Origin: Chloroflexota bacterium
Lineage (GTDB): Bacteria > Chloroflexota > Anaerolineae > B4-G1 > SLSP01
Reading direction: 5' to 3'
Assembly: GCA_009908585.1 (NCBI GenBank)
Contig: JAAAOZ010000004.1
Coordinates: 1 to 32,496 of the forward strand
DNA: 32,496 nt
The number at the start of each line of letters is the position of its first letter. Position 1 is the stretch's first letter. The notes below the pieces were generated by a model that made no database searches, was not told the origin of the DNA, and worked only from the letters and a program-made list of their open reading frames with translations. This document shows, in pieces, positions 4,790-26,274 of the stretch. The translations under genes were made by a program, and so were the position numbers.

Positions 4790-5085
4790 AGCGCCGATGG
4801 TGGCCCCACCTCAAAAACAAGCGACGCGAACCACCGCAGACGCAGGCGGAAGCACGCCGGCGCGAGGCCAAGCTAAATACAGACGCCTACCGCCGCTATC
4901 TGAGATCTCCGCGCTGGCATGTCAAGCGCCTGCGCGTACTCATTCGGGACGGCGGGAGATGCCAGATGTGCGGACGCTACGGACGCGACGTCCACCATTT
5001 GACATACAAGCGAATTTTCAGAGAGCCACTATTTGACCTGGTGACGCTTTGCCGAGAATGCCATACCACACTACACGGGAAGTAA
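4786..5085 (+). CDS. HNH-family endonuclease-like protein (99 aa)
   Basis: ATGA overlap with the upstream gene. CQMCG...VHHLTY...LCRECH..LH is the HNH beta-beta-alpha metal finger pattern. Confidence 0.8.
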   Translation: MKRRWWPHLKNKRREPPQTQAEARRREAKLNTDAYRRYLRSPRWHVKRLRVLIRDGGRCQMCGRYGRDVHHLTYKRIFREPLFDLVTLCRECHTTLHGK

Positions 5086-5093
5086 CAAACAAT

Positions 5094-5345
5094 ATGAAAA
5101 TTAGAGACTTGACACAATGCGAATGGCAGCGAGCGCTCCGGGAAGATGACGTGGAGACACTCGACATGACCTGGTACAACTGGGATCGCGAGACCCCGGA
5201 GCTACACGACGCCACACCAGATGACCTCCGGCCCTACGTCCCGCCAGGCGACCGCTATCTCTACGACCAGGCCATCGCTGCCGGATTGAGTCAGGAAGAG
5301 GCAATGAAGCGCACCGAGGACATTGGAGTTCCACATGAAGATTAG
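5094..5345 (+). CDS. hypothetical protein, paralog A (83 aa)
   Basis: MKIRDLTQCEWQRALREDD... The first ~55 residues are clearly homologous to the next gene. Confidence 0.65.
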   Translation: MKIRDLTQCEWQRALREDDVETLDMTWYNWDRETPELHDATPDDLRPYVPPGDRYLYDQAIAAGLSQEEAMKRTEDIGVPHED

Positions 5346-5622
5346 AGACTTAACGCACACAGAATGGAAACGCGCACTTCGGGAAGACGATGCCCAGACG
5401 CTCGACCGCTGCTGGTTTAACTTTGACCGCGACACCCCAGAACTACACGACCGCACCCCCGCCGACTTGCGCCCCTACCTCCCAACGGACGCGCGCCGAG
5501 CTTACGCAACGGCCATCGTCTTGTTAGGGATGACCGCGCTCGACGCCTGGGACATAGCTATATCCGGCGTGATTTGCGAGCAGTTGGAACGCGCAGAAGA
5601 ACTCGGCCTGCTGAACAACTGA
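5335..5622 (+). CDS. hypothetical protein, paralog B (95 aa)
   Basis: MKIRDLTHTEWKRALREDD... GGAG RBS. Overlaps the end of paralog A. Confidence 0.65.
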   Translation: MKIRDLTHTEWKRALREDDAQTLDRCWFNFDRDTPELHDRTPADLRPYLPTDARRAYATAIVLLGMTALDAWDIAISGVICEQLERAEELGLLNN

Positions 5623-5626
5623 AACC

Positions 5627-6352
5627 ATGATGATTCCCCCTTTAGTCTATTGTGCAAACGGCAACAAAAGACTAGCCAGAATCGCCGTAGACGCCGGCTG
5701 GTTATACGGAGCACAACTCCCCGGCACAGTCTACACAGAAGAAGTCGCGCCGTTGTGGTTTGCGGATCAGGACTGGAAAACCCCACGGCGTGAAGAATAC
5801 GTAAAAGCGATAGCAAAGCATCACCCCGAGCAGGCTACTGTGTTGGATTTGGAGCGCGAGGAGCAGATCACGGAGGTCATTGATTGGGCAGAGGAAATCG
5901 CACCCTATGTAGATCGCGTTATTATCATACCTAAGGTGTTCGGAATTATACCGGAAATACCAAAGCGAATCGAAGGGGCGGATGTCATTCTGGGATATAG
6001 TGTGCCAACCAGATACGCAGGAACCGAGGTGCCCATTTGGGAATTCGGGCATCGCCCAATCCACCTGCTGGGCGGAAGTCCGCAGAAACAACTATCACTT
6101 CGGAGATACCTTAACGTAGTAAGTGCAGATGGTAACTATGCGATGAAAATGGCGATGCGCTATTGTCAATTCTGGGTACCAGGAACGGCGCGGTATGCTA
6201 AAAATCGCTGGTGGCCTACGATGCGAGAAGCAAACGACGGAGAATTATGGCCTGGCGAGGATGCGCCTTACGAGGCATTCCGGCGAAGTTGTAAAAATAT
6301 AATAGATGCATGGAAACCAATCAAAACGCAAAAACCAGAGGAGGAAGCATGA
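5627..6352 (+). CDS. hypothetical TIM-barrel-like protein; possible TGT/DpdA-like transglycosylase (low-confidence function)
   Basis: 241-aa ORF with alternating beta-strand-like hydrophobic runs. HLLGGSPQKQ(...)VVSADGNYAMKMA resembles the LMGVGxPxD...DMFDCVxPTR segment of tRNA-guanine transglycosylases as I recall it. Confidence 0.7.
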   Translation: MMIPPLVYCANGNKRLARIAVDAGWLYGAQLPGTVYTEEVAPLWFADQDWKTPRREEYVKAIAKHHPEQATVLDLEREEQITEVIDWAEEIAPYVDRVIIIPKVFGIIPEIPKRIEGADVILGYSVPTRYAGTEVPIWEFGHRPIHLLGGSPQKQLSLRRYLNVVSADGNYAMKMAMRYCQFWVPGTARYAKNRWWPTMREANDGELWPGEDAPYEAFRRSCKNIIDAWKPIKTQKPEEEA

Positions 6353-7347
6353 CCACCATAAACGCAGGAATTGATGTAGGATATGGCAGCACGAAAACCG
6401 TCGTCCATAACAGGCGCCGATCCACTACCCCCTCGATCATCGGCCCCGCCGTTCGTATGGAGTACCAGACAGGATTCCACAACAACGGCGCCGGCGATAT
6501 GCTCATGGAGATCGGCGGGCAGAAACTCTTCGTAGGCGACCTGGCGCGTCGCCAGAGCAACGCCCCGCGATCCCCTCTCGGCCGCGAGCGCGACCTGGAA
6601 TTCGTCAAGGTCATGGCCCTGGCCGGGCTATTCTCCGTCGGGATTCACAATGCGAACGTGAACCTGGTGACCGGCCTGCCCGTCGCATGGTACACAGATC
6701 ACGACGCCCTCGAGGACGCCCTGGCCGGCGCGCATAGCTACGCCGTCAACGGCGAGCCATGCGAGATCGACATCCAGAGTGTACGCACAATCCCGCAACC
6801 TTTCGGGACGCTCTACCGCGAGATGATACAGGATGGCATCGCAACCGATCCGCACGGCTACGCACACGCGACCGTGGCCATCGTAGATATTGGCGATGGC
6901 ACGACTGACTTTGTGGTGAGCAAGGCCCTGGAGTACATGCAACACGATAGCGGGCTATCCGGGAGCATCGACGTGGCCGCCGCTGAAATCTACCGCCACG
7001 TCCAGCAGCAACTCCGCGAGCATCACCAGGCGGAGTATGCACGCCGGGAGATTGAGGCCCTCCTGCACACCCGCAGCAGCGTAAGGATCGCCGGCGAAGA
7101 GGTGAGCCTTACAGAATTCGTCGCGCCGGCCCTGGACTTTGTAGCTCACCAGATTTTGGACTGGATGAGTGAGCACTGGGGCAACGCGCGCCAATTCGAG
7201 TACCTAATCATTACCGGCGGCGGCGCGAACCTCCTCGCCAAAGATATCCGCGAGGCTTACCCGTTCTCTACCAGAACGGGAAGCCCGCAGATCGCCAACG
7301 CAGCCGGCATGGCCGAGCTCGCGGCCCTTCATGCACGCAACGCATAA
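6349..7347 (+). CDS. ParM/StbA-type actin-like segregation ATPase
   Basis: Actin-fold motifs GIDVGYGSTK (phosphate 1), VAIVDIGDGTTDF (phosphate 2) and LIITGGGANLL (adenosine). ATG at 6349 behind GAGGAGGAA, with ATGA overlap. Confidence 0.85.
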   Translation: MTTINAGIDVGYGSTKTVVHNRRRSTTPSIIGPAVRMEYQTGFHNNGAGDMLMEIGGQKLFVGDLARRQSNAPRSPLGRERDLEFVKVMALAGLFSVGIHNANVNLVTGLPVAWYTDHDALEDALAGAHSYAVNGEPCEIDIQSVRTIPQPFGTLYREMIQDGIATDPHGYAHATVAIVDIGDGTTDFVVSKALEYMQHDSGLSGSIDVAAAEIYRHVQQQLREHHQAEYARREIEALLHTRSSVRIAGEEVSLTEFVAPALDFVAHQILDWMSEHWGNARQFEYLIITGGGANLLAKDIREAYPFSTRTGSPQIANAAGMAELAALHARNA

Positions 7348-7389
7348 CGCCCCCAATAACGGCATTAGTGCCGTGCATAGTGAGGTTAT

Positions 7390-7695
7390 ATGCCATATCT
7401 GAGAATTTACATCGGCGACGACGACGCCGACATCATGGAAATCTGGGACGGCTTGCCACCAAACGGGAAGAGCGCCTGGGTGAAAGACGCCATCCGAGAG
7501 AAAGCAGATCGAGAGAAATTAGGCGCAAGCGACGAGGAAGTGGTAACGCAAATTTTGACCGCTGAGGATCTGCGCGCGGTCATTCGCGAGGAGTTGGCCG
7601 GACTACAAATCGCAACGACGAAAGCGCAGGATGAGAGCGAATCGGAAGTCTCGGAGGATCGGGACGCCGCTAACAAGATTTTAGGGATGTTTTGA
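7390..7695 (+). CDS. small acidic protein with RHH-like N-terminus; possible ParR-like adaptor
   Basis: Lies directly downstream of the ParM-like gene. LRIYIG (strand) followed by DADIMEIWDGL and KSAWVKDAIREK (helices). Confidence 0.65.
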   Translation: MPYLRIYIGDDDADIMEIWDGLPPNGKSAWVKDAIREKADREKLGASDEEVVTQILTAEDLRAVIREELAGLQIATTKAQDESESEVSEDRDAANKILGMF

Positions 7696-7704
7696 GGTGA
7701 GGAA

Positions 7705-7877
7705 ATGACCGAGAAAAAGACCCCATACACAACCAGAATGAATCCGAATCAAGGTGAGGAGCGTGCTATTTCCCAGGAAATACCGCGCCGGATGCCAGAA
7801 AGCAAGTGGGAGATGATAGTCAAGATCGCACGCTGGCTTTCTCGCCAGCAAACCGAAACGAGGGAGGATACCGCATG
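7705..7877 (+). CDS. 57-aa hypothetical protein
   Basis: ATG at 7705 behind GAGGTGAGGA. Ends in an ATGA overlap with the next gene. Below the ORF-track cutoff. Contains the ATTTCCCAGGAAAT site. Confidence 0.4.
7768..7781. promoter_or_regulatory. palindromic site ATTTCC-CA-GGAAAT (copy 2 of 4)
   Basis: Shares 17 nt (atttcccaggaaatacc) with the copy at 19314-19330. Confidence 0.4.
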
Positions 7878-8279
7878 ATCGCCGCTTTATTGATCGCCGC
7901 TTTATTGATTGCCGTTGTGTTCTTGAGCTACCTGCTGGTCCAAAGCAGCGCCACCGCCGAGCAAGCCACGGAGGCCGCCGTGCTGATGGCACGCCAGAGT
8001 CAAGGAGATCAAGTCATCATTATGAGCTTGTTGGCCTTGCTATCCTTGGCCGTGATCGTCATCCTAATCATGGCCTGGAGGTTGCGCAGTAAGAAGCAAG
8101 CAACCCCAGAACGCCCGACGCGCATCTTCTCCGGAAAACAGAACCGCGCCGGGATACAACAGCAGAACGCCGATCCCATGCAGTCGTTGATCCAGTTGGA
8201 GGTGATGCGCTACCTCCGCGAACGCCCGCAACCGCGCGCCCTCCCCCACGAAAACGAAACCGAGGACTGGCCCTGGTGA
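7875..8279 (+). CDS. membrane protein (134 aa, two hydrophobic segments)
   Basis: ATG at 7875 behind GGGAGGA. IAALLIAALLIAVVFLSYLLV and IIMSLLALLSLAVIVILIMAW. Confidence 0.65.
   Translation: MIAALLIAALLIAVVFLSYLLVQSSATAEQATEAAVLMARQSQGDQVIIMSLLALLSLAVIVILIMAWRLRSKKQATPERPTRIFSGKQNRAGIQQQNADPMQSLIQLEVMRYLRERPQPRALPHENETEDWPW
7878..7916 (+). repeat. 15-bp tandem repeat (about 2.6 copies) encoding IAALL-IAALL-IAV
   Basis: atcgccgctttattg occurs at 7878-7892 and 7893-7907, with a partial third copy. Confidence 0.8.
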
Positions 8280-9385
8280 CGACGCGAGAGCGACGCACGA
8301 AGGCCGGCCTTTTGATCGGCCTGATACTCATAATCAGCCTGGCCTGCGCAGACCAGAGTGCCATGACAACGCAGGCCATCGCGCCGGTCGTCACGTCATC
8401 AGCCCTCCAACCAACAATTGAGGCCATGGAGGTGCAGCGATACGCTGACGGCATTCGCGCCGAGAACAACGCCCGCGACGCCCAGGCGACCATCACGGCC
8501 CTGGGAGCACAGGCAACCGCCACAGCCTCGGCCATCGATGCACAATACACCGCCGTGGCCAGCGCCGCCACCCTCACAGCGGCAGCGCATCAGTCAACCG
8601 CCACCGCCGAGGCACAACGGCGCGTCGATCAGGAAGCGCGCCTCCATGCGACCGCCACAGCAGAAACCAAACAGATCGCAGCCACCGCCACGGCCCAGAT
8701 CGCCAACGCCAACGCCACCGCCACCAGCACCGCCGGCCGCGCGACCTCTACAGTCGAGGCCGCCAACTGGAGCCATAACGCCACCGCGACCGTTGCGGCT
8801 TGGAGCATCCAGGCCACCGCCACCGTAGAAGCCCACAACGCCTGGATCACCATCCAGGCCGCCGAGGCGCGCCGCGCCGAACTCGACCTGCACAGGGAGG
8901 AGACCATCGCCCCCTTGCGCACCTACGGGCCATGGATCGCCGGGTCGGCTTTCATGATCCTTATCATTGCCGTGATCGCCGGCGTCGTTACGTCATTTTT
9001 GAAAGTTTACGAAATTCAGAACTCGGCCATCCAACGGGACGAGCGCGGAGACGCCCCCCTGCTCCTGATTGATCCAAAACGCGGATGGCAGATCGCCGAT
9101 CCCGATCTTGCCCAGTGGCCCATCCTGACCGGCGCAGAGTCGCAACCCCGCGCCGACGAGGAAACCCAGGCCGCGATCAAGCGACGCGACCAGATGCTCG
9201 ACATCGGCACACGCGGAAGTACTGGCCGGCGCGCACGCGGGAGCGCACGCCAGACGGCCATCCAGGAGATGTCGCGCACCCCAGGATTCCAGGTTTTAAA
9301 GCGCGGCACAGCGCCCCCCCAAGCCCTGATCGATAGAAAGACAATGCTGGCCCTTGAGGACCAGTGGAAAGAGGAGAAAAGATGA
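8276..9385 (+). CDS. membrane-anchored Ala/Thr-rich protein (369 aa), possible signal or lipoprotein N-terminus
   Basis: GTG start in a GTGA overlap. N-terminus LLIGLILIISLAC. Long ATATA-type low-complexity region. Second TM segment WIAGSAFMILIIAVIAGVVTSF. Confidence 0.7.
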   Translation: MTTRERRTKAGLLIGLILIISLACADQSAMTTQAIAPVVTSSALQPTIEAMEVQRYADGIRAENNARDAQATITALGAQATATASAIDAQYTAVASAATLTAAAHQSTATAEAQRRVDQEARLHATATAETKQIAATATAQIANANATATSTAGRATSTVEAANWSHNATATVAAWSIQATATVEAHNAWITIQAAEARRAELDLHREETIAPLRTYGPWIAGSAFMILIIAVIAGVVTSFLKVYEIQNSAIQRDERGDAPLLLIDPKRGWQIADPDLAQWPILTGAESQPRADEETQAAIKRRDQMLDIGTRGSTGRRARGSARQTAIQEMSRTPGFQVLKRGTAPPQALIDRKTMLALEDQWKEEKR

Positions 9386-9582
9386 GCATCTATTTCTACA
9401 TTCTCATTCTTGATTATTTTTTCGGAGCCATCGCCGTCTTGCTATCGATGACCGTTTTTTCGAGAAATGACACGGATCGTAGCTCGGTATATATTGTAAC
9501 CGTCACTGTCATGTGGCCTATATTTGGGTTGCTGTGGGTGTTATTTACGTCATATTTTGCAATTAGTGAGGCTGAAAATTGA
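9382..9582 (+). CDS. small two-TM membrane protein (66 aa), visibly AT-richer than its neighbours
   Basis: ATGA overlap. YFYILILDYFFGAIAVLLSMTVF and VMWPIFGLLWVLFTSYFAI. Confidence 0.65.
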   Translation: MSIYFYILILDYFFGAIAVLLSMTVFSRNDTDRSSVYIVTVTVMWPIFGLLWVLFTSYFAISEAEN

Positions 9583-9640
9583 CAGGAGGAATGTCACTAT
9601 TGAAACGTGTCATTCGACACATCCATTCCTCATGATTGTT
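9574..9640 (+). repeat. structured direct repeat, copy A
   Basis: Starts at the last codons and stop of the upstream gene. Outer stem 9586-9593/9624-9631, inner hairpin GTGTC-ATTC-GACAC at 9607-9620. Homologous to 10982-11045. Confidence 0.75.
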
Positions 9641-9649
9641 TGGTATCAT
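9641..9649 (+). promoter_or_regulatory. extended -10 promoter TGgTATCAT
   Basis: Identical 9-mer to the one at 4131-4139, located 47 nt upstream of the RBS-backed start at 9696. Confidence 0.4.
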
Positions 9650-9695
9650 GAGGATAGTTAAGGATAAGAAACCGAACACCAAAATGGAGGAAGAC

Positions 9696-10991
9696 ATGAC
9701 GCAGCTAACGGCAAAAGTTCAGGCGATCACCACCACGCCAGAAGAGCGCGCGACGCAGCACATCGCCGCGCGCCTCTGGCGCTTTCTCCAGCAGCGTAAC
9801 CACGTGCCGGAAGTCCCGACGCGCCCGGCATTTTACGCTTGCCCACTACCGGATCGCGCCCTCATGGTCTTTGATCTGGAGGCCGGCCGCGATCTTGAGC
9901 GATTGCTAACCAGAAAGGAGCAGGCCAGCCTGGAACGCGTGCTCGGCGGCCGGCCCGTCTTGGCCTACGATCATGGCGGGCTATACCTGCAAATAGCCTA
10001 CCGCCCCGCGCCACCCCCCACGCCCCCACAATCCAAACCCCTGGACCTCACAAGGCAACCCTCCCCCCTGGCCCTACCTTGCGGTGAGACGAAAAACGGC
10101 CCGCTTTGGCTACCACTTGCCGACGCAGACAGTATCCTGGTGGCCGGCGCCCGCCAGATGGGCAAAACGACCCTCCTCCATGCCTGGATTCAAGCTCTCA
10201 TCGCGGGAGAAAAAGCCCACCTTACGCTTTGGGATGGCAAGGCCGGGTCGGAGTTCGCGCGCTACGAAAGCCAACGCGCCACTCACGCCACGCAGATCGA
10301 GGATGCCCTGGCGCGCATCACGGAGACGATGCACGCCAGGCAGGATGCATATAAGACGTCTGGAGCACGAAACTTCCGCGACCACGCCAAGATCACCGGC
10401 GACGAGACCACGCCGGAAGTGATCATCGTAGATGAGGCCATCGAACTGCCCGACACCGCGATGGAGGCATTCGAGCACCTCATCCGGCTTGGTGGCGGCT
10501 ATGCGATTCACCCCATCCTCGGTACGCAACACCCCAGCGCTGGCACCGTCACGTCGTTGGTCCGCGCCAACCTCAAAACGCGGATCGCCCTGCCCGTTGC
10601 GACCGCCAGAGAGAGCGTCGCAATTCTCGGGCATGGCGGAGCAGAGAAACTGCCCAAGCAGCCCGGCCATCTATTGATAGAATGGAGAGGGGAAATGATA
10701 CAGGCAGTAAGCAATCAAGTCGACGTGCCGGCCCCCACGCCCACCGCCGCGCCGCTCATTACGCAACCAGAGCGCCGCCTGGCCGAGATCGCCATCCGCG
10801 AACTTGGTGGATGGTTTCACATCGTCCCACTCTCTGAGGAATCAGGGGAAAGCAAGGATTTTGTGAACGATCTCGCCAAGAGATGGCAGGCCATGGGACT
10901 TCTAACCGAAGTCCAGCGCGACGAGCATGGCTATATTTGCGGTCGAGAGGTGAAACCACGCCTCAGAGAGATAGTAGAGGCGAAAAACTGA
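9696..10991 (+). CDS. FtsK/SpoIIIE-family DNA-translocase-like ATPase with C-terminal winged-helix-like domain
   Basis: Walker A GARQMGKTT and Walker B VIIVDEA. GTQHPSAGTVTSLVRANLKTRIALPVATARESVAILG matches the FtsK motor signature (TQRPS...N...RIA). Start at 9696 behind GGAGGAAG. No TM segment. Confidence 0.85.
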   Translation: MTQLTAKVQAITTTPEERATQHIAARLWRFLQQRNHVPEVPTRPAFYACPLPDRALMVFDLEAGRDLERLLTRKEQASLERVLGGRPVLAYDHGGLYLQIAYRPAPPPTPPQSKPLDLTRQPSPLALPCGETKNGPLWLPLADADSILVAGARQMGKTTLLHAWIQALIAGEKAHLTLWDGKAGSEFARYESQRATHATQIEDALARITETMHARQDAYKTSGARNFRDHAKITGDETTPEVIIVDEAIELPDTAMEAFEHLIRLGGGYAIHPILGTQHPSAGTVTSLVRANLKTRIALPVATARESVAILGHGGAEKLPKQPGHLLIEWRGEMIQAVSNQVDVPAPTPTAAPLITQPERRLAEIAIRELGGWFHIVPLSEESGESKDFVNDLAKRWQAMGLLTEVQRDEHGYICGREVKPRLREIVEAKN

Positions 10992-11045
10992 CAGGAAGAA
11001 TGTCACGCCGGAAACGTGTCACATGACACATCCATTCTCATTAAG
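10982..11045 (+). repeat. structured direct repeat, copy B
   Basis: Again begins at the last codons and stop of the upstream gene. Outer stem 10997-11002/11033-11038, inner hairpin GTGTC-ACAT-GACAC at 11016-11029. Confidence 0.75.
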
Positions 11046-11084
11046 ATACATTAAATGAAAATCAAGCATCAGAAAAGGAGCATC

Positions 11085-11228
11085 ATGAGCAAGATCAAGC
11101 AGGTATTGAAGAAAGTCGCAAGAGCTATCAACCCCACAGCACCGCGCCGTATCAATACATCGCGTATTCCGATTGATCACGCCGTCAAGAAAGTCGGTAA
11201 GATCGGCGCGCCGAAGGGGAGATCATGA
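11085..11228 (+). CDS. 47-aa basic micro-protein
   Basis: AAAAGGAGC RBS. ATGA overlap with the HAD gene. Below the ORF-track cutoff. Confidence 0.5.
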   Translation: MSKIKQVLKKVARAINPTAPRRINTSRIPIDHAVKKVGKIGAPKGRS

Positions 11229-11794
11229 ACCACAAAAATCGGAAGCTCTTCATATTTGACCTTGATGGCACCCTGATTGAGCGCGTCCAGGAACCCGACG
11301 GAGGAACGCGCCCGGCCAACACGCCGGACGAGGTGAAGCTTCTACCTGGCGTCAAGAAGAAAATAGCAGAACTGCGCGAACAGAGGCATATTGTCGCCAT
11401 CGCGACAAATCAAGGCGGCGTCGCTTGGGGATTCACGACAGAAGAGAATGTTTGGAGCGTGTTAAACGAGGTGGACAAGCAGTGCGGTCGTCAGTTTTGC
11501 TCCCGAAAAGCTTGTTTTTACGATCCCAGCGCAAGACATGGTTTACTAGACACGCGGCCAGAATACGCAAGTCACACCATCTTCCGCAAGCCATGGCCCG
11601 GAATGCTCTTTCAAATTATGATGGAGTTAGATTTTGACCAGGACGACGTGTTTTACATCGGCGACCAACCAAGCGACCTTGAGACCGCGAACCGCGCCGG
11701 CGTGAAGTTCCGCAACGCGGAATTCTTCTTTAAGCCAACACCCCCTGACGCCGGAATAGGCAGAAGAGGAGAACAGGCAGAACAGGAGGAATAG
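11225..11794 (+). CDS. HAD-IIIA phosphatase (GmhB / polynucleotide 3'-phosphatase-like)
   Basis: Motif I FDLDGTL, motif II IATNQGG, RKPWPGM, motif IV YIGDQPSDLETANRAGV. Confidence 0.85.
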   Translation: MNHKNRKLFIFDLDGTLIERVQEPDGGTRPANTPDEVKLLPGVKKKIAELREQRHIVAIATNQGGVAWGFTTEENVWSVLNEVDKQCGRQFCSRKACFYDPSARHGLLDTRPEYASHTIFRKPWPGMLFQIMMELDFDQDDVFYIGDQPSDLETANRAGVKFRNAEFFFKPTPPDAGIGRRGEQAEQEE

Positions 11795-11811
11795 GGAAAA
11801 AACTAAACTAT

Positions 11812-11841
11812 TTGACAATACCAGCAAGCCTGTGCTATACT
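11812..11841 (+). promoter_or_regulatory. near-consensus sigma70-type promoter (late operon)
   Basis: TTGACA at 11812-11817, 18-nt spacer, TG at 11833-11834, TATACT at 11836-11841, with an A-rich upstream tract. Confidence 0.65.
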
Positions 11842-11859
11842 GACATGTAACACAGGCTT
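11826..11859. promoter_or_regulatory. 9-bp inverted repeat AAGCCTGTG/CACAGGCTT bracketing the -10 and start site (operator-like)
   Basis: Arms at 11826-11834 and 11851-11859, both perfect. Confidence 0.5.
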
Positions 11860-11872
11860 GACCGAGCCATAA

Positions 11873-11915
11873 GGCCGGAGCACTGCGAAAGCAGTCGCTC
11901 CGGCCTTTTTTGTTT
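11873..11915 (+). terminator. strong intrinsic terminator between the late promoter and the first late gene
   Basis: GGCCGGAGCACTGC-GAAA-GCAGT(C)GCTCCGGCC followed by TTTTTTGTTTT. 14 bp of stem with a GNRA loop. Confidence 0.8.
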
Positions 11916-11935
11916 TCCAAACAAAGGAGCAACAC

Positions 11936-13027
11936 ATGCCAAAAAACGCGCAACGCGACGGTCGAAACGCGCAAATCTACACCACACAACTCGACGGGAA
12001 CCAAGTCGCGCGCAAGGCCCTGGCCGGAGAGCCAATCCTGGTGTACCCCAAGGGCACCCACCATCGCGAGATGTGGGGAGGAAAAATCAAAACGTGGGAG
12101 GTCGACGACGACATCATCACCGACCTGGTGGAGAATTACACCCACCGCCTGGAGCGCGGCATCCGCCAGGGACTACTACCCGTGAACGAAGACCACAACG
12201 GGAGTCGCGCCCTGGGTTATTTTGACCAGGTCGCCGCCACGCCGGAAGGCTTGGCCGCCTCGTTTACGTGGAACCCCAAAGGCCGCGAAGCCCTGGAAAA
12301 CGGGGAGTTCGCATACTTTTCCCTGGAAATATACGATGAGATGGTAGATCGCGTTACCGGCGAAACGGTCAAAAACCAGATCTCCGGCGGCGCTTTGACG
12401 AATTACCCATTTTTTGGAGAGGCCGCCGCATTGATGAGCCGCTCCGCACAATCAAAGGAGGCACCTATGCCGACCGAAGTGCAGCACCAAGACGCACCGC
12501 AGGACGTCGCCTGGTACAGAGGCCTGGTCGACAAATTGACCGGCCAATTCACCACCGGCGCCCCCGCGCAGAACGGCTCGCCGATCCAAGACCGCAAAGG
12601 CGAGGATCTGCGCGCCGAATTTGACCGTCGCATCCAGGAGATCGAAACGCAGATGGAGAGTCGCATCGCGGACGTAGAAAGCGAGCGCGACGCTTACGCA
12701 CGTCAGATCGATGACCTGCGTGGCCAGCTTTCCCAGACCGAAGACGCGAGAGGTTCTCCCGCATGGCCGCCGGCTTTTCCCACGTCCCCGCCAAAACCTC
12801 CGACCTGGCTGAGCATCTCCGCTGGTTGCATGGGATCGACAGCGACGGCGAGCACGCGGCCTTCTTCACCCGCATGCTCTCGAAGACCGACGACGCCTTC
12901 AGAGAACAATTCAAGGCCAAGCAACTCCGCCACGATCACAGCCTGGACTCCGCAGAGAACCGCATCCACGCCCTCGCCGCTCAATACGAGGCCGAGCACC
13001 CCGACACAAATTACACACAGGCATTGA
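11936..13027 (+). CDS. Mu-I-like prohead protease / scaffold; reading frame appears broken near 12715-12765
   Basis: PVNEDHN, LGYFDQV...GLAASFTWNP, FAYFSLEI and GALTNYPFF match the Mu-like protease family pattern, followed by a coiled-coil. After about 12745 this frame gives a Pro/Ser/Thr-rich tail typical of out-of-frame reading. Confidence 0.75.
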   Translation: MPKNAQRDGRNAQIYTTQLDGNQVARKALAGEPILVYPKGTHHREMWGGKIKTWEVDDDIITDLVENYTHRLERGIRQGLLPVNEDHNGSRALGYFDQVAATPEGLAASFTWNPKGREALENGEFAYFSLEIYDEMVDRVTGETVKNQISGGALTNYPFFGEAAALMSRSAQSKEAPMPTEVQHQDAPQDVAWYRGLVDKLTGQFTTGAPAQNGSPIQDRKGEDLRAEFDRRIQEIETQMESRIADVESERDAYARQIDDLRGQLSQTEDARGSPAWPPAFPTSPPKPPTWLSISAGCMGSTATASTRPSSPACSRRPTTPSENNSRPSNSATITAWTPQRTASTPSPLNTRPSTPTQITHRH

Positions 13028-18772: not shown

Positions 18773-19312
18773 ATGCGCATCACCGCCGGCCTGGTTCAAG
18801 ATGACGAGTATAACGATTTTTGGCACAACTTGGCCGGGATAGGCGACCTCGGCGCGCGCGAAACGGAGATCATTGCCGATACGGCACGCCGAGGCATTCA
18901 CGAAAACTTCAAGCGCGAGCAGTCTCCTGACGGAACACCATGGACACCCCTGGCCCCCTACACCCAACAGCAACGCCGCGCCGGCATCGATGAGCGCGGC
19001 ATCCCTTTTTCAACCGGCGCAGAACACCCCATCCTGCGCCGCACCGATGACCTCCTCCTTTCGTTTGTGAACCCCCGTCACCCGCGCAACATCACCATTG
19101 CAGATCATGACGGATGGAATACCCGTATCACACTCGGAGCCGTTGACGACCCGCAGACCCCCAACCGCATCGCAACCCTACACGCCGGCGGAACCACGGC
19201 CACAGGACGCATCGTTCCCCCGCGTCCATTTGTTGGGCTTGGAACCAAGGCCATCCGGCAACTCGAAGCCCAGGCCCTGGCAATCCTAACGCAGCGCGTG
19301 AAAAACCTCTAA
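18773..19312 (+). CDS. Mu gpG-like virion morphogenesis / tail completion protein (179 aa)
   Basis: FKREQSPDGTPWTPLAP...ILRRTDDLLLS...HAGG...IVPPRPFVG matches the phage virion morphogenesis family pattern. GAGGAGG RBS. Confidence 0.7.
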   Translation: MRITAGLVQDDEYNDFWHNLAGIGDLGARETEIIADTARRGIHENFKREQSPDGTPWTPLAPYTQQQRRAGIDERGIPFSTGAEHPILRRTDDLLLSFVNPRHPRNITIADHDGWNTRITLGAVDDPQTPNRIATLHAGGTTATGRIVPPRPFVGLGTKAIRQLEAQALAILTQRVKNL

Positions 19313-19313
19313 C

Positions 19314-19327
19314 ATTTCCCAGGAAAT
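19314..19327. promoter_or_regulatory. palindromic site ATTTCC-CA-GGAAAT (copy 3 of 4), overlapping the tape-measure RBS
   Basis: It lies within a 19-nt exact repeat (19310-19328, also found at 26243-26261) that starts at a TAA stop codon. Confidence 0.45.
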
Positions 19328-19330
19328 ACC

Positions 19331-25300: not shown

Positions 25301-26245
25301 CTCGACGACCTAAACGCCAGCATCGCGGAAGCTAACGCCGATCTCCAGACCGACTTAGCAAAAATGGAAGACGACTACAACCAAAACCGCCGCGACGCCG
25401 CCGAGGACTTCCGGCAATCCGAGGCCGAGCAGGAGCGCCAGCACCAAGAGAAACGAGCACGCGCCCTCGAAGAGCATAACAAGCGCATGCGGCGCATGCG
25501 AGAGGATCACGAAGCGCGCGTCTTTGACCTCGAATTGGCCCGCGACGCCGCCGGTCTGTTCAAAGAAAAGCGAAACTACGAAAAGGAGAAGTCGCGCGCC
25601 GAGGAGGACTTCGCGGATCAGCAGCAACAACAGGCCGAGCAATACCAGCGGGAGCGCGCCAAGCGCGCCCAACAACACCAGCAGCGCATGGTCGACATCG
25701 AAACCGAGTATCAGCGCCGGCGCACCGAGCGCATCCAACAAAACACGGAGCGCGTCGCAGAGATGAGGCAGCAACACCAGGAAGAAATGGCCCGCTTGGA
25801 ACGTGAGTATTTCGACAAGATCAATGCAGAATTAAACTATTTCACGCAATCAAAGGCCCAACGCGAGGCCTACTATCAAGCAATGATACAGGATACTGAG
25901 AGATTCCTGGCCGCCAACCGCAACATTTGGGCCCGACACATCGCCAACTTGCCCACGCCATCCGGCGTCTCGATACCAGCAGGTGGCCTCCGCGCCCGCG
26001 CGGCCGGTGGCTACATCCGCAACACCGAACCGCACATGATGCACGCCGGGGAATTCGTCATGTCACCAGGCACCACGCGGCAAGTTGAAGCGGCGATGGG
26101 TACCCGACTAAACCAACAGAACGTCCGGCGTGGCGGCGGCGTAAACATCTCCGCCACCTTCACCGGGATGGGCACCGCAGATCGCACCTGGTACGAGGCA
26201 AAACTTCAGGAATTCGAGCGCGAGATCACCGACGCGATTCTGTAA
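19331..26245 (+). CDS. tape measure protein (2304 aa)
   Basis: Size, coiled-coil composition, a TP901-type core region (SDVAGSFKMASATAERAGESLEDTAAVFTLLGENGIKATQAGTGYQQML), hydrophobic segments near 24.3-24.9 kb, and position after G/GT. Confidence 0.95.
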   Translation: MTTDFKIKITIDGQDAAQQAGDVRKAIEKELGAITFQTKMDKSTANALKRMFSYAGKEAKNLERAAAALQQIGEVDPDSLEGLHRAMLSIKQDAKGIGKAMADGMQENWGRLETTLTAIQSQISGIVARGPASAFGEMTGEIQGLDDALDAGTTKAVSAMQKIKELEGRIQGATEEIGRLGSQRFQPLSGATTTTMDALFEGFASSGYKSYISRIKNKITRELEEMQVEVAGKMANVQDHIARRVEIGTRMRDMVIGGGLSEDEVEEVQSHYDRLGVAITVSAEGLAQNMEEVRQAIREHMAIEPPEGSPELAQWKEQMETLSAIKIDIDREIGEARSSVYDQETVALMSKMDARERELREEHAGNIELWEEFGMESIEEVKQALEREGQQAAANTIASMVKLQERVNRLQQKQKAQVSKLQKGATAQLPKGAQGTLVDFINAQKAMGDAVTGTIEIINEQADAFDNLVEAMDAAAKASEGMNYIERRASQELEAAARRELTKRTRASVPLDQAAENSRDVLTRLAGHVASLRTAIETPMDEMAQATDEAADGVESDVSQLRQKLTELQTQAMKEIESLPRRGVGIEKATEQSRAVLLRLAQEIEALQQTAAKPAEDAAEATQDTAKQVASSVDKIERELASDPTEPAKEQAKGLVKVWQWVSDKLVGHSIVPEMVAGINAELRKIDTRPIADVKSAATPGPTASDLQGVALYNETGQNRAVGKAMQRQHSTAWWAAYTNAFTASQEGMAAVAQKTEQDIAAATDHQQAIRNTQTAARAILDEWRQVYEELVGHSIIPDMVREINAWLAKVDPEYFGSEALVGMAESTAQEVSEVLTAATEGLPIENITARLADLEAERKSLNREMAEMTLRGGLQPSKQAGPRYRAMMDEMYSDMDKMRGEIGGEGWGSDEEAAMRAMGYMPKGWSPHQGERMTEGSEDEFVRALNTDAEFKTRFTAEEEARLEGVMEKLAAVEVQYATLAQSLIKRRDALLAQFEAITEDEGASPEEFERVYTQLQETEQALEQLDQQMREGDVAAKIQEAQDLSDVSTELEQDREQARTLEEQRAFNRSPEATRQKEIERRKTEAKKSSIRLQEQEEKLIRKAQQLTAELGENWESIQANMESSGQSAAELVGSLTRQKQEQKQLRKAQQLAAELGEDWESIQSNMEASGQSAAEIVGSLTRQKKEARELAQAEARAQKEARQREVLSERAQQMTTKIGVSWRAVEDAADATGLSIEEIVRELETVANNQQRINRHADRLRENYTGIGGTIKLFRDEINAAAKESEGLTQLGRNLEQVANNLGRTSMVIGGSLIKAGKDYRDFISQTDMAARAVGLNQQMTQGLRADVMAMSTETGIDPREISRGLTAWAQDANVTIETQEELNALLENTIPIQEAVALTGVDMATMSQAAAAAINQYGKEMEDVEEITAIFNKVANETLASVSDVAGSFKMASATAERAGESLEDTAAVFTLLGENGIKATQAGTGYQQMLDNLLVPTSEKAKEVLVDLFGDEEAFFDQEGNFVGTAKAIEMIAEATRGLTDQQREAAMGALFTQNASRVAAILVREQMEAGAQGINTLKEKASELSADSLQEWEQQREDLESSETQRIARLEQEWRRLWLTIGQQGMELVLPTVEATSQALEKVSAFAGQYPQVVKAFAVLAGGGFAISRLLAATGTALQTINMASNLAKGTWGVLEFKSAVVTSAETFREIVTEAAATAATTETEGAKAEGVIEAESAVDEKVIEASSAEAEGVIEAKSAVDEEVIEAKGAEIEGALEAKSAIDEEVIEVTGAKTETAIETASAGGLAAALGTAAAGISALATAVLVPLAGIFGGAKIYDEFIADKIGGASLEQFGAVTAYAVGEALEKIGLGEDLGERWFSRRAGLEQEQPNPASYLPGPNLRTTGPSGDDMLREFGIMLPGTGIDGIKDLDGAIKDLGDTATDASYEIYDAQRQQEDAYDLSEEQEKAVDLYVELLQKQKTALDDLNASIAEANADLQTDLAKMEDDYNQNRRDAAEDFRQSEAEQERQHQEKRARALEEHNKRMRRMREDHEARVFDLELARDAAGLFKEKRNYEKEKSRAEEDFADQQQQQAEQYQRERAKRAQQHQQRMVDIETEYQRRRTERIQQNTERVAEMRQQHQEEMARLEREYFDKINAELNYFTQSKAQREAYYQAMIQDTERFLAANRNIWARHIANLPTPSGVSIPAGGLRARAAGGYIRNTEPHMMHAGEFVMSPGTTRQVEAAMGTRLNQQNVRRGGGVNISATFTGMGTADRTWYEAKLQEFEREITDAIL
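22640..22909 (+). repeat. 135-bp (45-aa) tandem duplication inside the tape measure gene
   Basis: RKAQQLTAELGENWESIQANMESSGQSAAELVGSLTRQK aligns with RKAQQLAAELGEDWESIQSNMEASGQSAAEIVGSLTRQK. Confidence 0.85.
24533..24730 (+). repeat. three 66-bp (22-aa) tandem repeats inside the tape measure gene
   Basis: AEGVIEAESAVDEKVIEASS / AEGVIEAKSAVDEEVIEAKG / IEGALEAKSAIDEEVIEVTG. Confidence 0.8.
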
Positions 26246-26246
26246 C

Positions 26247-26260
26247 ATTTCCCAGGAAAT
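26247..26260. promoter_or_regulatory. palindromic site ATTTCC-CA-GGAAAT (copy 4 of 4)
   Basis: Within the 19-nt exact repeat 26243-26261, immediately after the tape-measure stop codon. Confidence 0.45.
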
Positions 26261-26274
26261 AACCAAGGAGCAAT

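Follow-up and report, generated by a model that had tools for sequence, protein, structure and literature searches.

A duplicated non-coding element at the 3′ end of an FtsK/TraB-like gene in a putative Chloroflexota phage-plasmid: a candidate clt-like site

In the present study, we analyzed a 32,496-nucleotide stretch of DNA from a Chloroflexota bacterium (assembly GCA_009908585.1, contig JAAAOZ010000004.1, positions 1 to 32,496, forward strand), hereafter the window. We focused on R, a non-coding repeat element found on both sides of a gene for an FtsK/TraB/TcpA-like ATPase of 431 amino acids (aa; 9696-10991). All genes of the window lie on the + strand, as do both copies of R. The best explanation of the results is that R is a cis element acting as double-stranded DNA, that its two repeats are paralogous copies, and that its native place is the 3′ end of the FtsK/TraB-like gene. 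A preliminary description of this DNA had named recognition by the enclosed translocase as a possible role of the repeats. This role stayed viable on position and family context, and on the same grounds we tentatively favor a reading of R as a clt-like loading site for the FtsK/TraB-like translocase, built of TGACA words, which we consider plausible without regarding it as probable.

A repeat search of the window aligned the upstream copy of R (copy A, 9568-9628) with the downstream copy (copy B, 10977-11037) at 82% identity over 61 nt without gaps, which agreed with the two direct copies first described. As delimited here, the core of copy A spans 9562-9634 and copy B spans 10971-11042. The core patterns GAAACGTGTCANNNGACACATCCATTC and TGACAGGARGAATGTCAC each had two exact matches in the window, whereas shuffling predicted 0.00 and 0.05, respectively. 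It was likewise confirmed that both copies start within the last codons and the TGA of the preceding open reading frame (ORF). Copy A is preceded by a small ORF ending in ISEAEN (stop codon 9580-9582), and copy B by the FtsK-like gene ending in IVEAKN (stop codon 10989-10991), whose last codons and TGA it overlaps. The core of copy A begins with ATTAGTGAGGCTGAAAATTGA, which repeats the FtsK 3′ end (IVEAKN and stop) in degenerate form, and its opening ATTAGTGAG resembles the FtsK codons for IVE (ATAGTAGAG). No third copy of R was found in the window by a covariance model with filters off, and the covariance search that had been proposed, based on the structure first suggested, turned up no additional copies, either in the window or among 47 loci.

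The inverted words TGACA-N7-TGTCA and the arms of the GTGTC-N4-GACAC hairpin, both reported in the preliminary description, were observed in the two copies. Each copy contained four TGACA-type words, which were non-tandem and in mixed orientation (forward, reverse, reverse, forward). In copy A these were TGACA (9580-9584), TGTCA (9592-9596), TGTCA (9608-9612) and cGACA (9615-9619), and in copy B TGACA (10989-10993), TGTCA (11001-11005), TGTCA (11017-11021) and TGACA (11024-11028). Copies B and A were the densest TGACA/TGTCA clusters of the window, with four and three words per 50 nt, respectively (P(≥4) = 0.004). The differences between the copies were mostly located in the spacers between words, and the block GACACATCCA was invariant (9616-9625 in copy A and 11025-11034 in copy B).

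The closest relative of the FtsK-like protein, P0002 on contig L003, shared 55-56% aa identity with it. The window and L003 were collinear in the replication genes, the ParM-like gene, the ParR-like gene, the membrane protein gene p369 and the FtsK-like gene. The third codon positions of the two FtsK-like genes showed 30.7% identity, indicating that neutral sites are saturated. L003 contained a single R homologue, which starts 25 nt past the stop codon of the FtsK-like gene, on its downstream side. With copy A alone as the query, the match fell at L003 7432-7522 (E = 1.1e-5 in 1 Mb) and continued through a 30-nt extension (GATTGTnTnGTATCATG..TAG.TTAA), which was present in copy A and missing from copy B. 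In the window, this extension and the leader that follows occupy 9634-9695 (GATTGTTTGGTATCATGAGGATAGTTAAGG...), and the counterpart in L003 is 7491-7522. R and its extension had 62 identities with L003 in about 92 columns (67%). The other intergenic regions of the window did not align to L003, except for a palindrome between the ParM-like and ParR-like genes, which was the only intergenic sequence besides R conserved between the two. The 67% identity of R against 31% at third codon positions indicated that R is under purifying selection and argued that it is a functional non-coding element. Two further candidates were tried and rejected. A small ORF starting from GGAGGAATG inside R, 14 aa long in copy A and 8 aa long in copy B, was dropped, its start context not being kept in L003, and sigma-ECF-like (TGAAAC-N16) and dif/Xer-like readings were dropped because neither motif was, as judged by eye, conserved in the three copies.

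The FtsK-like protein had 42 relatives in metagenomes, and its relatives in genome collections were nearly all from metagenome-assembled genomes labelled Chloroflexota, mainly Anaerolineae. An exact-protein look-up found nothing on record, and blastn of positions 8000-13000 against 50,697 phage records gave no match. A protein-seeded scan of viral contigs returned nothing for the single protein and distant relatives only for an alignment query. Matches to the R-core patterns in viral and metagenome contigs were rejected as chance, since they stood in unrelated, mostly coding contexts and nhmmer found none of them homologous.

The position of the FtsK-like gene among its neighbors was then compared across relatives. 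In the window, the FtsK block begins with a gene for a 157-aa membrane protein (7806-8279), followed by p369, which encodes a 369-aa membrane protein (8276-9385). At least 15 loci had a homologue of p369 (360 aa) immediately before the FtsK-like gene, and it overlapped or abutted the FtsK-like start in L003, L004 and L005. The conserved unit is thus p369 with the FtsK-like gene, and the 310 nt separating them in the window, consisting of the small ORF and copy A, are the novelty. The lineage-specific material of the window thus lies in two places, with the small ORF and copy A before the FtsK-like gene, and orf47 and a HAD-IIIA phosphatase gene after copy B. The small ORF (9382-9582, with ATG at 9382 and 66 codons, or GTG at 9364 and 72 codons) is AT-rich and hydrophobic, and its last codons fall in copy A. 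Its ATG overlaps the TGA of p369 (ATGA), which is the exact site of the FtsK-like start in L003. A homologue search of 5.8 billion proteins returned only the small ORF itself. The FtsK-like frame is open from 9636, and its likeliest start is the ATG at 9696 after a GGAGGA ribosome-binding site. The repeats had been said to bracket the gene precisely. This held on the 3′ side, but copy A ends about 60 nt before the likeliest start.

These comparisons suggested the following history. Copy B is probably the positional orthologue of the L003 element, and copy A appears to have arisen when the last FtsK codons were copied to the 5′ side of FtsK along with R, its extension and its leader. This most likely happened by tandem duplication of FtsK and R, after which the first FtsK copy was probably reduced to its start codon and its last ~7 codons, giving the orphan ORF as a remnant or a replacement. 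The ancestral extension after copy B seems to have been replaced by a lower-GC, lineage-specific segment (11043-11794) containing orf47 (47 codons, 11085-11228) and the HAD-IIIA gene (11225-11794). The first 13 residues of the window FtsK-like protein have no counterpart in relatives and may conceivably derive from the gene that follows R in L003; the two genes downstream in L003 had no Pfam or PHROG match. The earlier suggestion that the repeats are cassette boundaries of an inserted FtsK module proved wrong in detail, since p369 and the FtsK-like gene form the conserved unit and L003 holds a single copy downstream. The pattern expected of a mobile cassette, with the gene present or absent and one repeat at the empty site, did not appear either. 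The gene was present in all relatives beside a p369 homologue, and L003 has both the gene and a single copy. The bracket geometry therefore reads as a duplication, not a cassette border.

The FtsK-like protein matched PF01580. Its AlphaFold2 model (predicted local distance difference test, pLDDT, 92.9) contained an FtsK-type motor, and its top Foldseek matches were TcpA, the coupling protein of pCW3, and motor domains of FtsK. The C-terminal 82 residues (~350-431) were modelled as an H-b-H-H-b-b winged helix-turn-helix with a pLDDT of 93.4. This domain matched MarR/ArsR/AspA winged helices (template-modelling score 0.7-0.76, root-mean-square deviation ~2 Å), and FtsK gamma was not among its top 50 structural matches. 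No transmembrane segment was found in the FtsK-like protein, and its N-terminal 110 residues contained no hydrophobic helix; the membrane proteins are encoded separately, by the two genes just upstream. Its assignment to a known defence system was set aside, as PADLOC gave generic ATPase-domain matches only.

If R is a clt-like site, the mechanism could be as follows. The two membrane proteins encoded upstream would anchor a hexameric motor at the membrane or septum, and its C-terminal winged helices would recognize, on the phage-plasmid DNA, the TGACA/TGTCA words in their clusters together with the invariant GACACATCCA block. Pumping of the double-stranded element across the septum, to a daughter cell or a filament neighbor, would follow. 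The extension of copy A probably also supplies the promoter or leader of FtsK after translational coupling to the upstream gene was broken.

The 3′ ends of FtsK-like genes in relatives bore on this reading. At 33 Chloroflexota loci, we counted arrays called by Tandem Repeats Finder with a period of 7-12 (mostly 9) and took ±200 nt around the FtsK-like stop codon as the stop zone. An array was found near the stop codon in 26 of the 33 loci, and the stop zone, which makes up 4.6% of the sequence, held 36 of the 91 arrays. For exact 7-mers, the top cluster of the whole locus fell in the stop zone in 9 of the 33 loci, against 7.7% expected. The array words were lineage-specific and 8-10 bp long (CGGATnnGG, CCTGATCCG, GATTTGGAA, GAATCTGG, GTGGATTA, GTGTTTTAAGG, GCGGAACAA and TGTCAAAG), and CGGATnnGG arrays often lay within the coding 3′ end, where they encode an acidic ADxAD tail. 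Neither the window nor L003 contained GGCGGAT-type or other period-9 arrays anywhere, and both have R at that spot instead. The densest TGACA/TGTCA cluster of L003 was also located at the FtsK stop codon, with extra words upstream of the part that aligned to the window; these unaligned words suggest word turnover. In L042, GTGGATTA is repeated nine times, and in L004, CCTGATCCG is repeated 8-11 times; the word of L004 was that of other loci in the opposite orientation. In L029, a GCGGAACAA array downstream of the FtsK-like gene is followed by long inverted CATTTGTCA/TGACAAATG arrays flanking a ~70-nt sequence also kept in L027 (L029 6290-6560 and L027 ~6360-6560), and this may be an origin or an RNA gene.

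Several observations weigh against the clt-like reading of R. R does not form a tandem array, its words run in both orientations with a short core of 5 bp, and part of the best-conserved blocks (ACAGGA and CATCCA) falls beyond the words. The known copies of R number only three, including two paralogues. In the C-terminal domain, the putative recognition helix (KDFVNDLAKRW in the window and RDWINTLAKKW in L003) is nearly the same in relatives with CGGATnnGG arrays, so that the switch to TGACA words is not mirrored in the protein. Furthermore, an array lies directly upstream of the ParM-like gene in 12 relatives and of a ParA-like gene in L009, which makes a role as a partition centromere possible.

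The main alternative is that R and its extension are a promoter/operator of the next gene (FtsK after copy A, orf47 after copy B and a 124-aa gene in L003). The palindromes TGACA-N7-TGTCA and TGTCA-N2/3-TGACA would be operators of a dimeric repressor, and the duplication would have been kept because it gave FtsK a promoter of its own. Taken together, we rate these proposals as unlikely, though not to be neglected. In a gene block whose members otherwise overlap, R occupies the only intergenic gaps of appreciable size; operators typically have palindromic half-sites, and it is the sequence that is conserved rather than pairing. A TATCAT hexamer resembling a -10 element occurs in the conserved extension shared by copy A and L003 and is lengthened to TGGTATCAT (9641-9649) in copy A, and copy B has a weak promoter-like match, ATGACA-18-TACATT (11023-11052). 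However, the promoter scans were weak: copy B scored 9/12, copy A gave nothing, and the region contained four promoter-like matches against 2.2 expected, which was no excess over shuffled sequence. As read from the sequence, TATCAT has no properly spaced -35 element in copy A or L003. In the same window, a near-consensus promoter (TTGACA-18-TATACT, 11/12) was found at 11812-11841, indicating that host promoters look canonical. No candidate repressor was identified, and this explanation leaves unaccounted for the 9-bp arrays inside the FtsK coding 3′ end of distant relatives. Should R be only a promoter/operator, the finding would amount to an ordinary regulatory duplication.

A second alternative is that the second copy has no function and is a passive scar of duplication or illegitimate recombination, bracketing the gene by chance. 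The duplication history itself is well supported, L003 holds one copy only, and the copies in the window have already diverged to 82%. Nevertheless, the element is constrained, as the comparison with third codon positions indicated. Copy A keeps the entire ancestral extension and supplies the ribosome-binding leader of FtsK, and the substitutions between the copies mostly spare the words. A passive scar thus seems to us quite unlikely.

It is also conceivable that R and the arrays of relatives are a parC-like centromere of a ParM/ParR system, bound by the ParR-like protein (7390-7695) and not by the translocase. The arrays upstream of ParM-like and ParA-like genes described above fit this proposal, as does the conservation of the ParM-like gene (6310-7347) and the small gene downstream of it in L003 and L004 and the lack of any repeat array upstream of parM itself in the window, L003 and L004. 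On the other hand, at least seven loci with arrays had no ParM- or ParA-like gene in a flank of 2.4-9 kb. One of these, the integrative element L005, has a serine recombinase, and no partition family is recorded for its called genes. The copies of R lie 2.2 and 3.6 kb downstream of the parM end and lack regular 10-11-bp iterons, whereas a parC array would be located directly upstream of parM. We consider a centromere role for R very unlikely.

Finally, the folding of R as RNA was evaluated. The preliminary description had held that both copies fold the same way, with a compensatory change in the outer stem, and had suggested an RNA-processing or terminator role under selection for structure. 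The outer stem GAGGAATG/CATTCCTC was perfect in copy A, but the two copies had different best folds, and the stem appeared in the minimum-energy fold of isolated copy A only and was absent from that of copy B. In copy A it was also lost once 30 more nt were included, because the perfect 9-bp hairpin CCTCATGAT (9628-9636)/ATCATGAGG (9645-9653) of the extension competes with it. The G-C to A-T difference in the stem is real; whether it is compensatory is doubtful, since it adjoins a 1-nt indel (CATTCCTC versus CATTCTC) and can equally be read as a deletion. Fold z-scores against shuffles were -1.19 and -1.98 for the cores of copies A and B, respectively, and -2.66 for copy A with its extension; in comparison, an intrinsic terminator of the window (11871-11915) reached -6.5. 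Across the only three sequences available, outer-stem columns 17/58 were G-C, A-U and U-A and columns 18/57 were G-C, G-C and A-U, and 33 of 500 shuffles had such double-sided changes at two pairs as well. L003 had mismatches at 3 of 8 outer-stem pairs, and both small hairpins and a third hairpin were broken there by uncompensated changes. RNAalifold on the three copies returned two 5-bp hairpins only (-6.6 kcal/mol), with a penalizing covariation term of +0.78 and no outer stem. The loop of the third hairpin was as conserved as its stem, and the invariant blocks (ACAGGA, GTCAC, ACGTG and GACACATCCA) included unpaired positions. No terminator-like site was called inside R, which has no U-tract, and no Rfam match was found in 9000-12200 at E ≤ 1. 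Selection on RNA structure is therefore not supported; the unpaired invariant blocks and the uncompensated breaks in L003 argue for DNA or protein recognition. A structured RNA acting as a processing site, stabilizer or translational control element accounts for the perfect stem of copy A, the two-sided changes and the z-score of copy A with its extension, but given the weak core z-scores, the breaks in L003 and the missing U-tract and Rfam family, it is the least likely of the explanations considered.

By its gene content, the element in the window reads as a tailed phage-plasmid. A ParB-like gene (481-1419) is followed by a replication initiator gene (1508-2683), inside which five 23-bp iterons (AGTTTACCGGAAACCGGCAAACT) lie at 1922-2052, and a DnaC-like loader gene comes next. 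The iterons are likely the origin of replication, and from this putative origin and the ParB-like and ParM-like genes the element is recognized as a phage-plasmid. At 5049-5345 and 5323-5622, two paralogous ORFs of ~98 aa stand in tandem; both matched a single L003 gene (3096-3440), so a gene was duplicated locally in the lineage of the window. The gene upstream of parM overlaps it, and the conserved palindrome between the ParM-like and ParR-like genes (ACGGCA-TTAG-TGCCGT; window 7348-7389, L003 4444-4488) matched on both strands. The HAD-IIIA gene resembles GmhB or polynucleotide 3′-phosphatase, sits between the maintenance genes and the late operon and is absent from relatives; it looks like a moron.

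The virion genes encode a Mu-type head protease, a scaffold protein, a major capsid protein and a 2304-aa tape-measure protein. Immediately upstream of the genes for the head protease, scaffold and capsid, the near-consensus promoter is followed within ~75 nt by the very strong terminator mentioned above (-37.7 kcal/mol, with a U-tract). This promoter-terminator pair (11812-11922) had no Rfam match. Its layout is like that of late-gene antitermination at lambda pR′-tR′; alternatively, it may be a small RNA. A 22-nt repeat, CTnTAACATTTCCCAGGAAATA, flanks the tape-measure gene (19307-19328 and 26240-26261), and weaker copies lie at 7761-7782 and 12310-12331. Each copy starts where the preceding gene ends, at its last codon and TAA, and holds the palindrome ATTTCC-CA-GGAAAT, and the predicted RNA hairpin is weak. 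The geometry is that of R, in which each side of a gene has a repeat placed at a stop codon.

R and the 9-bp arrays of relatives may together be the loading site of a previously undescribed module, consisting of two membrane proteins and a soluble winged-helix FtsK-like motor, spread on plasmid-like, integrative and phage-plasmid elements of Chloroflexota. We regard this combined proposal as possible but doubtful. If it is true, filamentous Chloroflexota would, like Streptomyces, transfer mobile DNA in double-stranded form from cell to cell or through septa, and such machinery would here be carried by a tailed phage, linking a phage-plasmid that forms virions to a DNA pump of a conjugation-like or septum-crossing kind. 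If R is the cis site of the translocase, it would provide a testable DNA target of ~70 bp for an uncharacterised Chloroflexota FtsK/TraB-like system. Under a family-wide rule, the 3′ end of the translocase gene bears either R or an array of short words, which would make such sites predictable from sequence. Our literature search found no such TraB/clt-type system, genetic tools or transfer mechanisms for Chloroflexota.

Mosaic phage genomes carry conserved "boundary sequences" and moron junctions, which repeat at gene junctions where modules were joined; besides R, the window has a second case of this kind in the 22-nt repeat around the tape-measure gene. R differs from these in that it is itself conserved between elements with saturated neutral sites, which suggests more than a recombination scar. 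FtsK gamma with KOPS (FtsK-orienting polar sequences) and SpoIIIE with SRS (SpoIIIE recognition sequences) share with the proposed system an FtsK-type motor whose C-terminal winged helix reads short DNA words for loading, a property that R's translocase would have by analogy. However, KOPS and SRS are dispersed, strand-biased chromosomal 8-mers and not a local cluster beside a gene. The parC site of ParMRC (type II) resembles R as a cluster of short repeats beside an actin-like partition gene on an extrachromosomal replicon, but R is located downstream of an FtsK-like gene, 3.6 kb from the parM end, and lacks regular 11-bp iterons. The closest parallel is found in Streptomyces, where TraB, an FtsK-like hexamer, reads repeated 8-bp clt words through a winged helix-turn-helix at its C terminus (PMC4447253). 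The clt of pWTY27 comprises 16 bp inside the tra gene 3′ end and 159 bp downstream, with four TGACACC words, inverted repeats and a translocase footprint (PMC3583192). In contrast to these systems, R is hosted by Chloroflexota on a putative tailed phage-plasmid, occurs in two copies and has non-tandem words in mixed orientation; its translocase lacks an N-terminal membrane anchor of its own and has separate membrane-protein genes upstream, and binding and transfer are proposed for R by analogy. Nevertheless, the likeness is considerable. In both cases the locus begins in the last codons of an FtsK/SpoIIIE-family translocase gene or near them (copy B overlaps the stop codon, and the L003 homologue follows it closely) and runs 50-160 bp downstream, contains several copies of a short word together with inverted repeats, and accompanies a translocase with a C-terminal winged helix.

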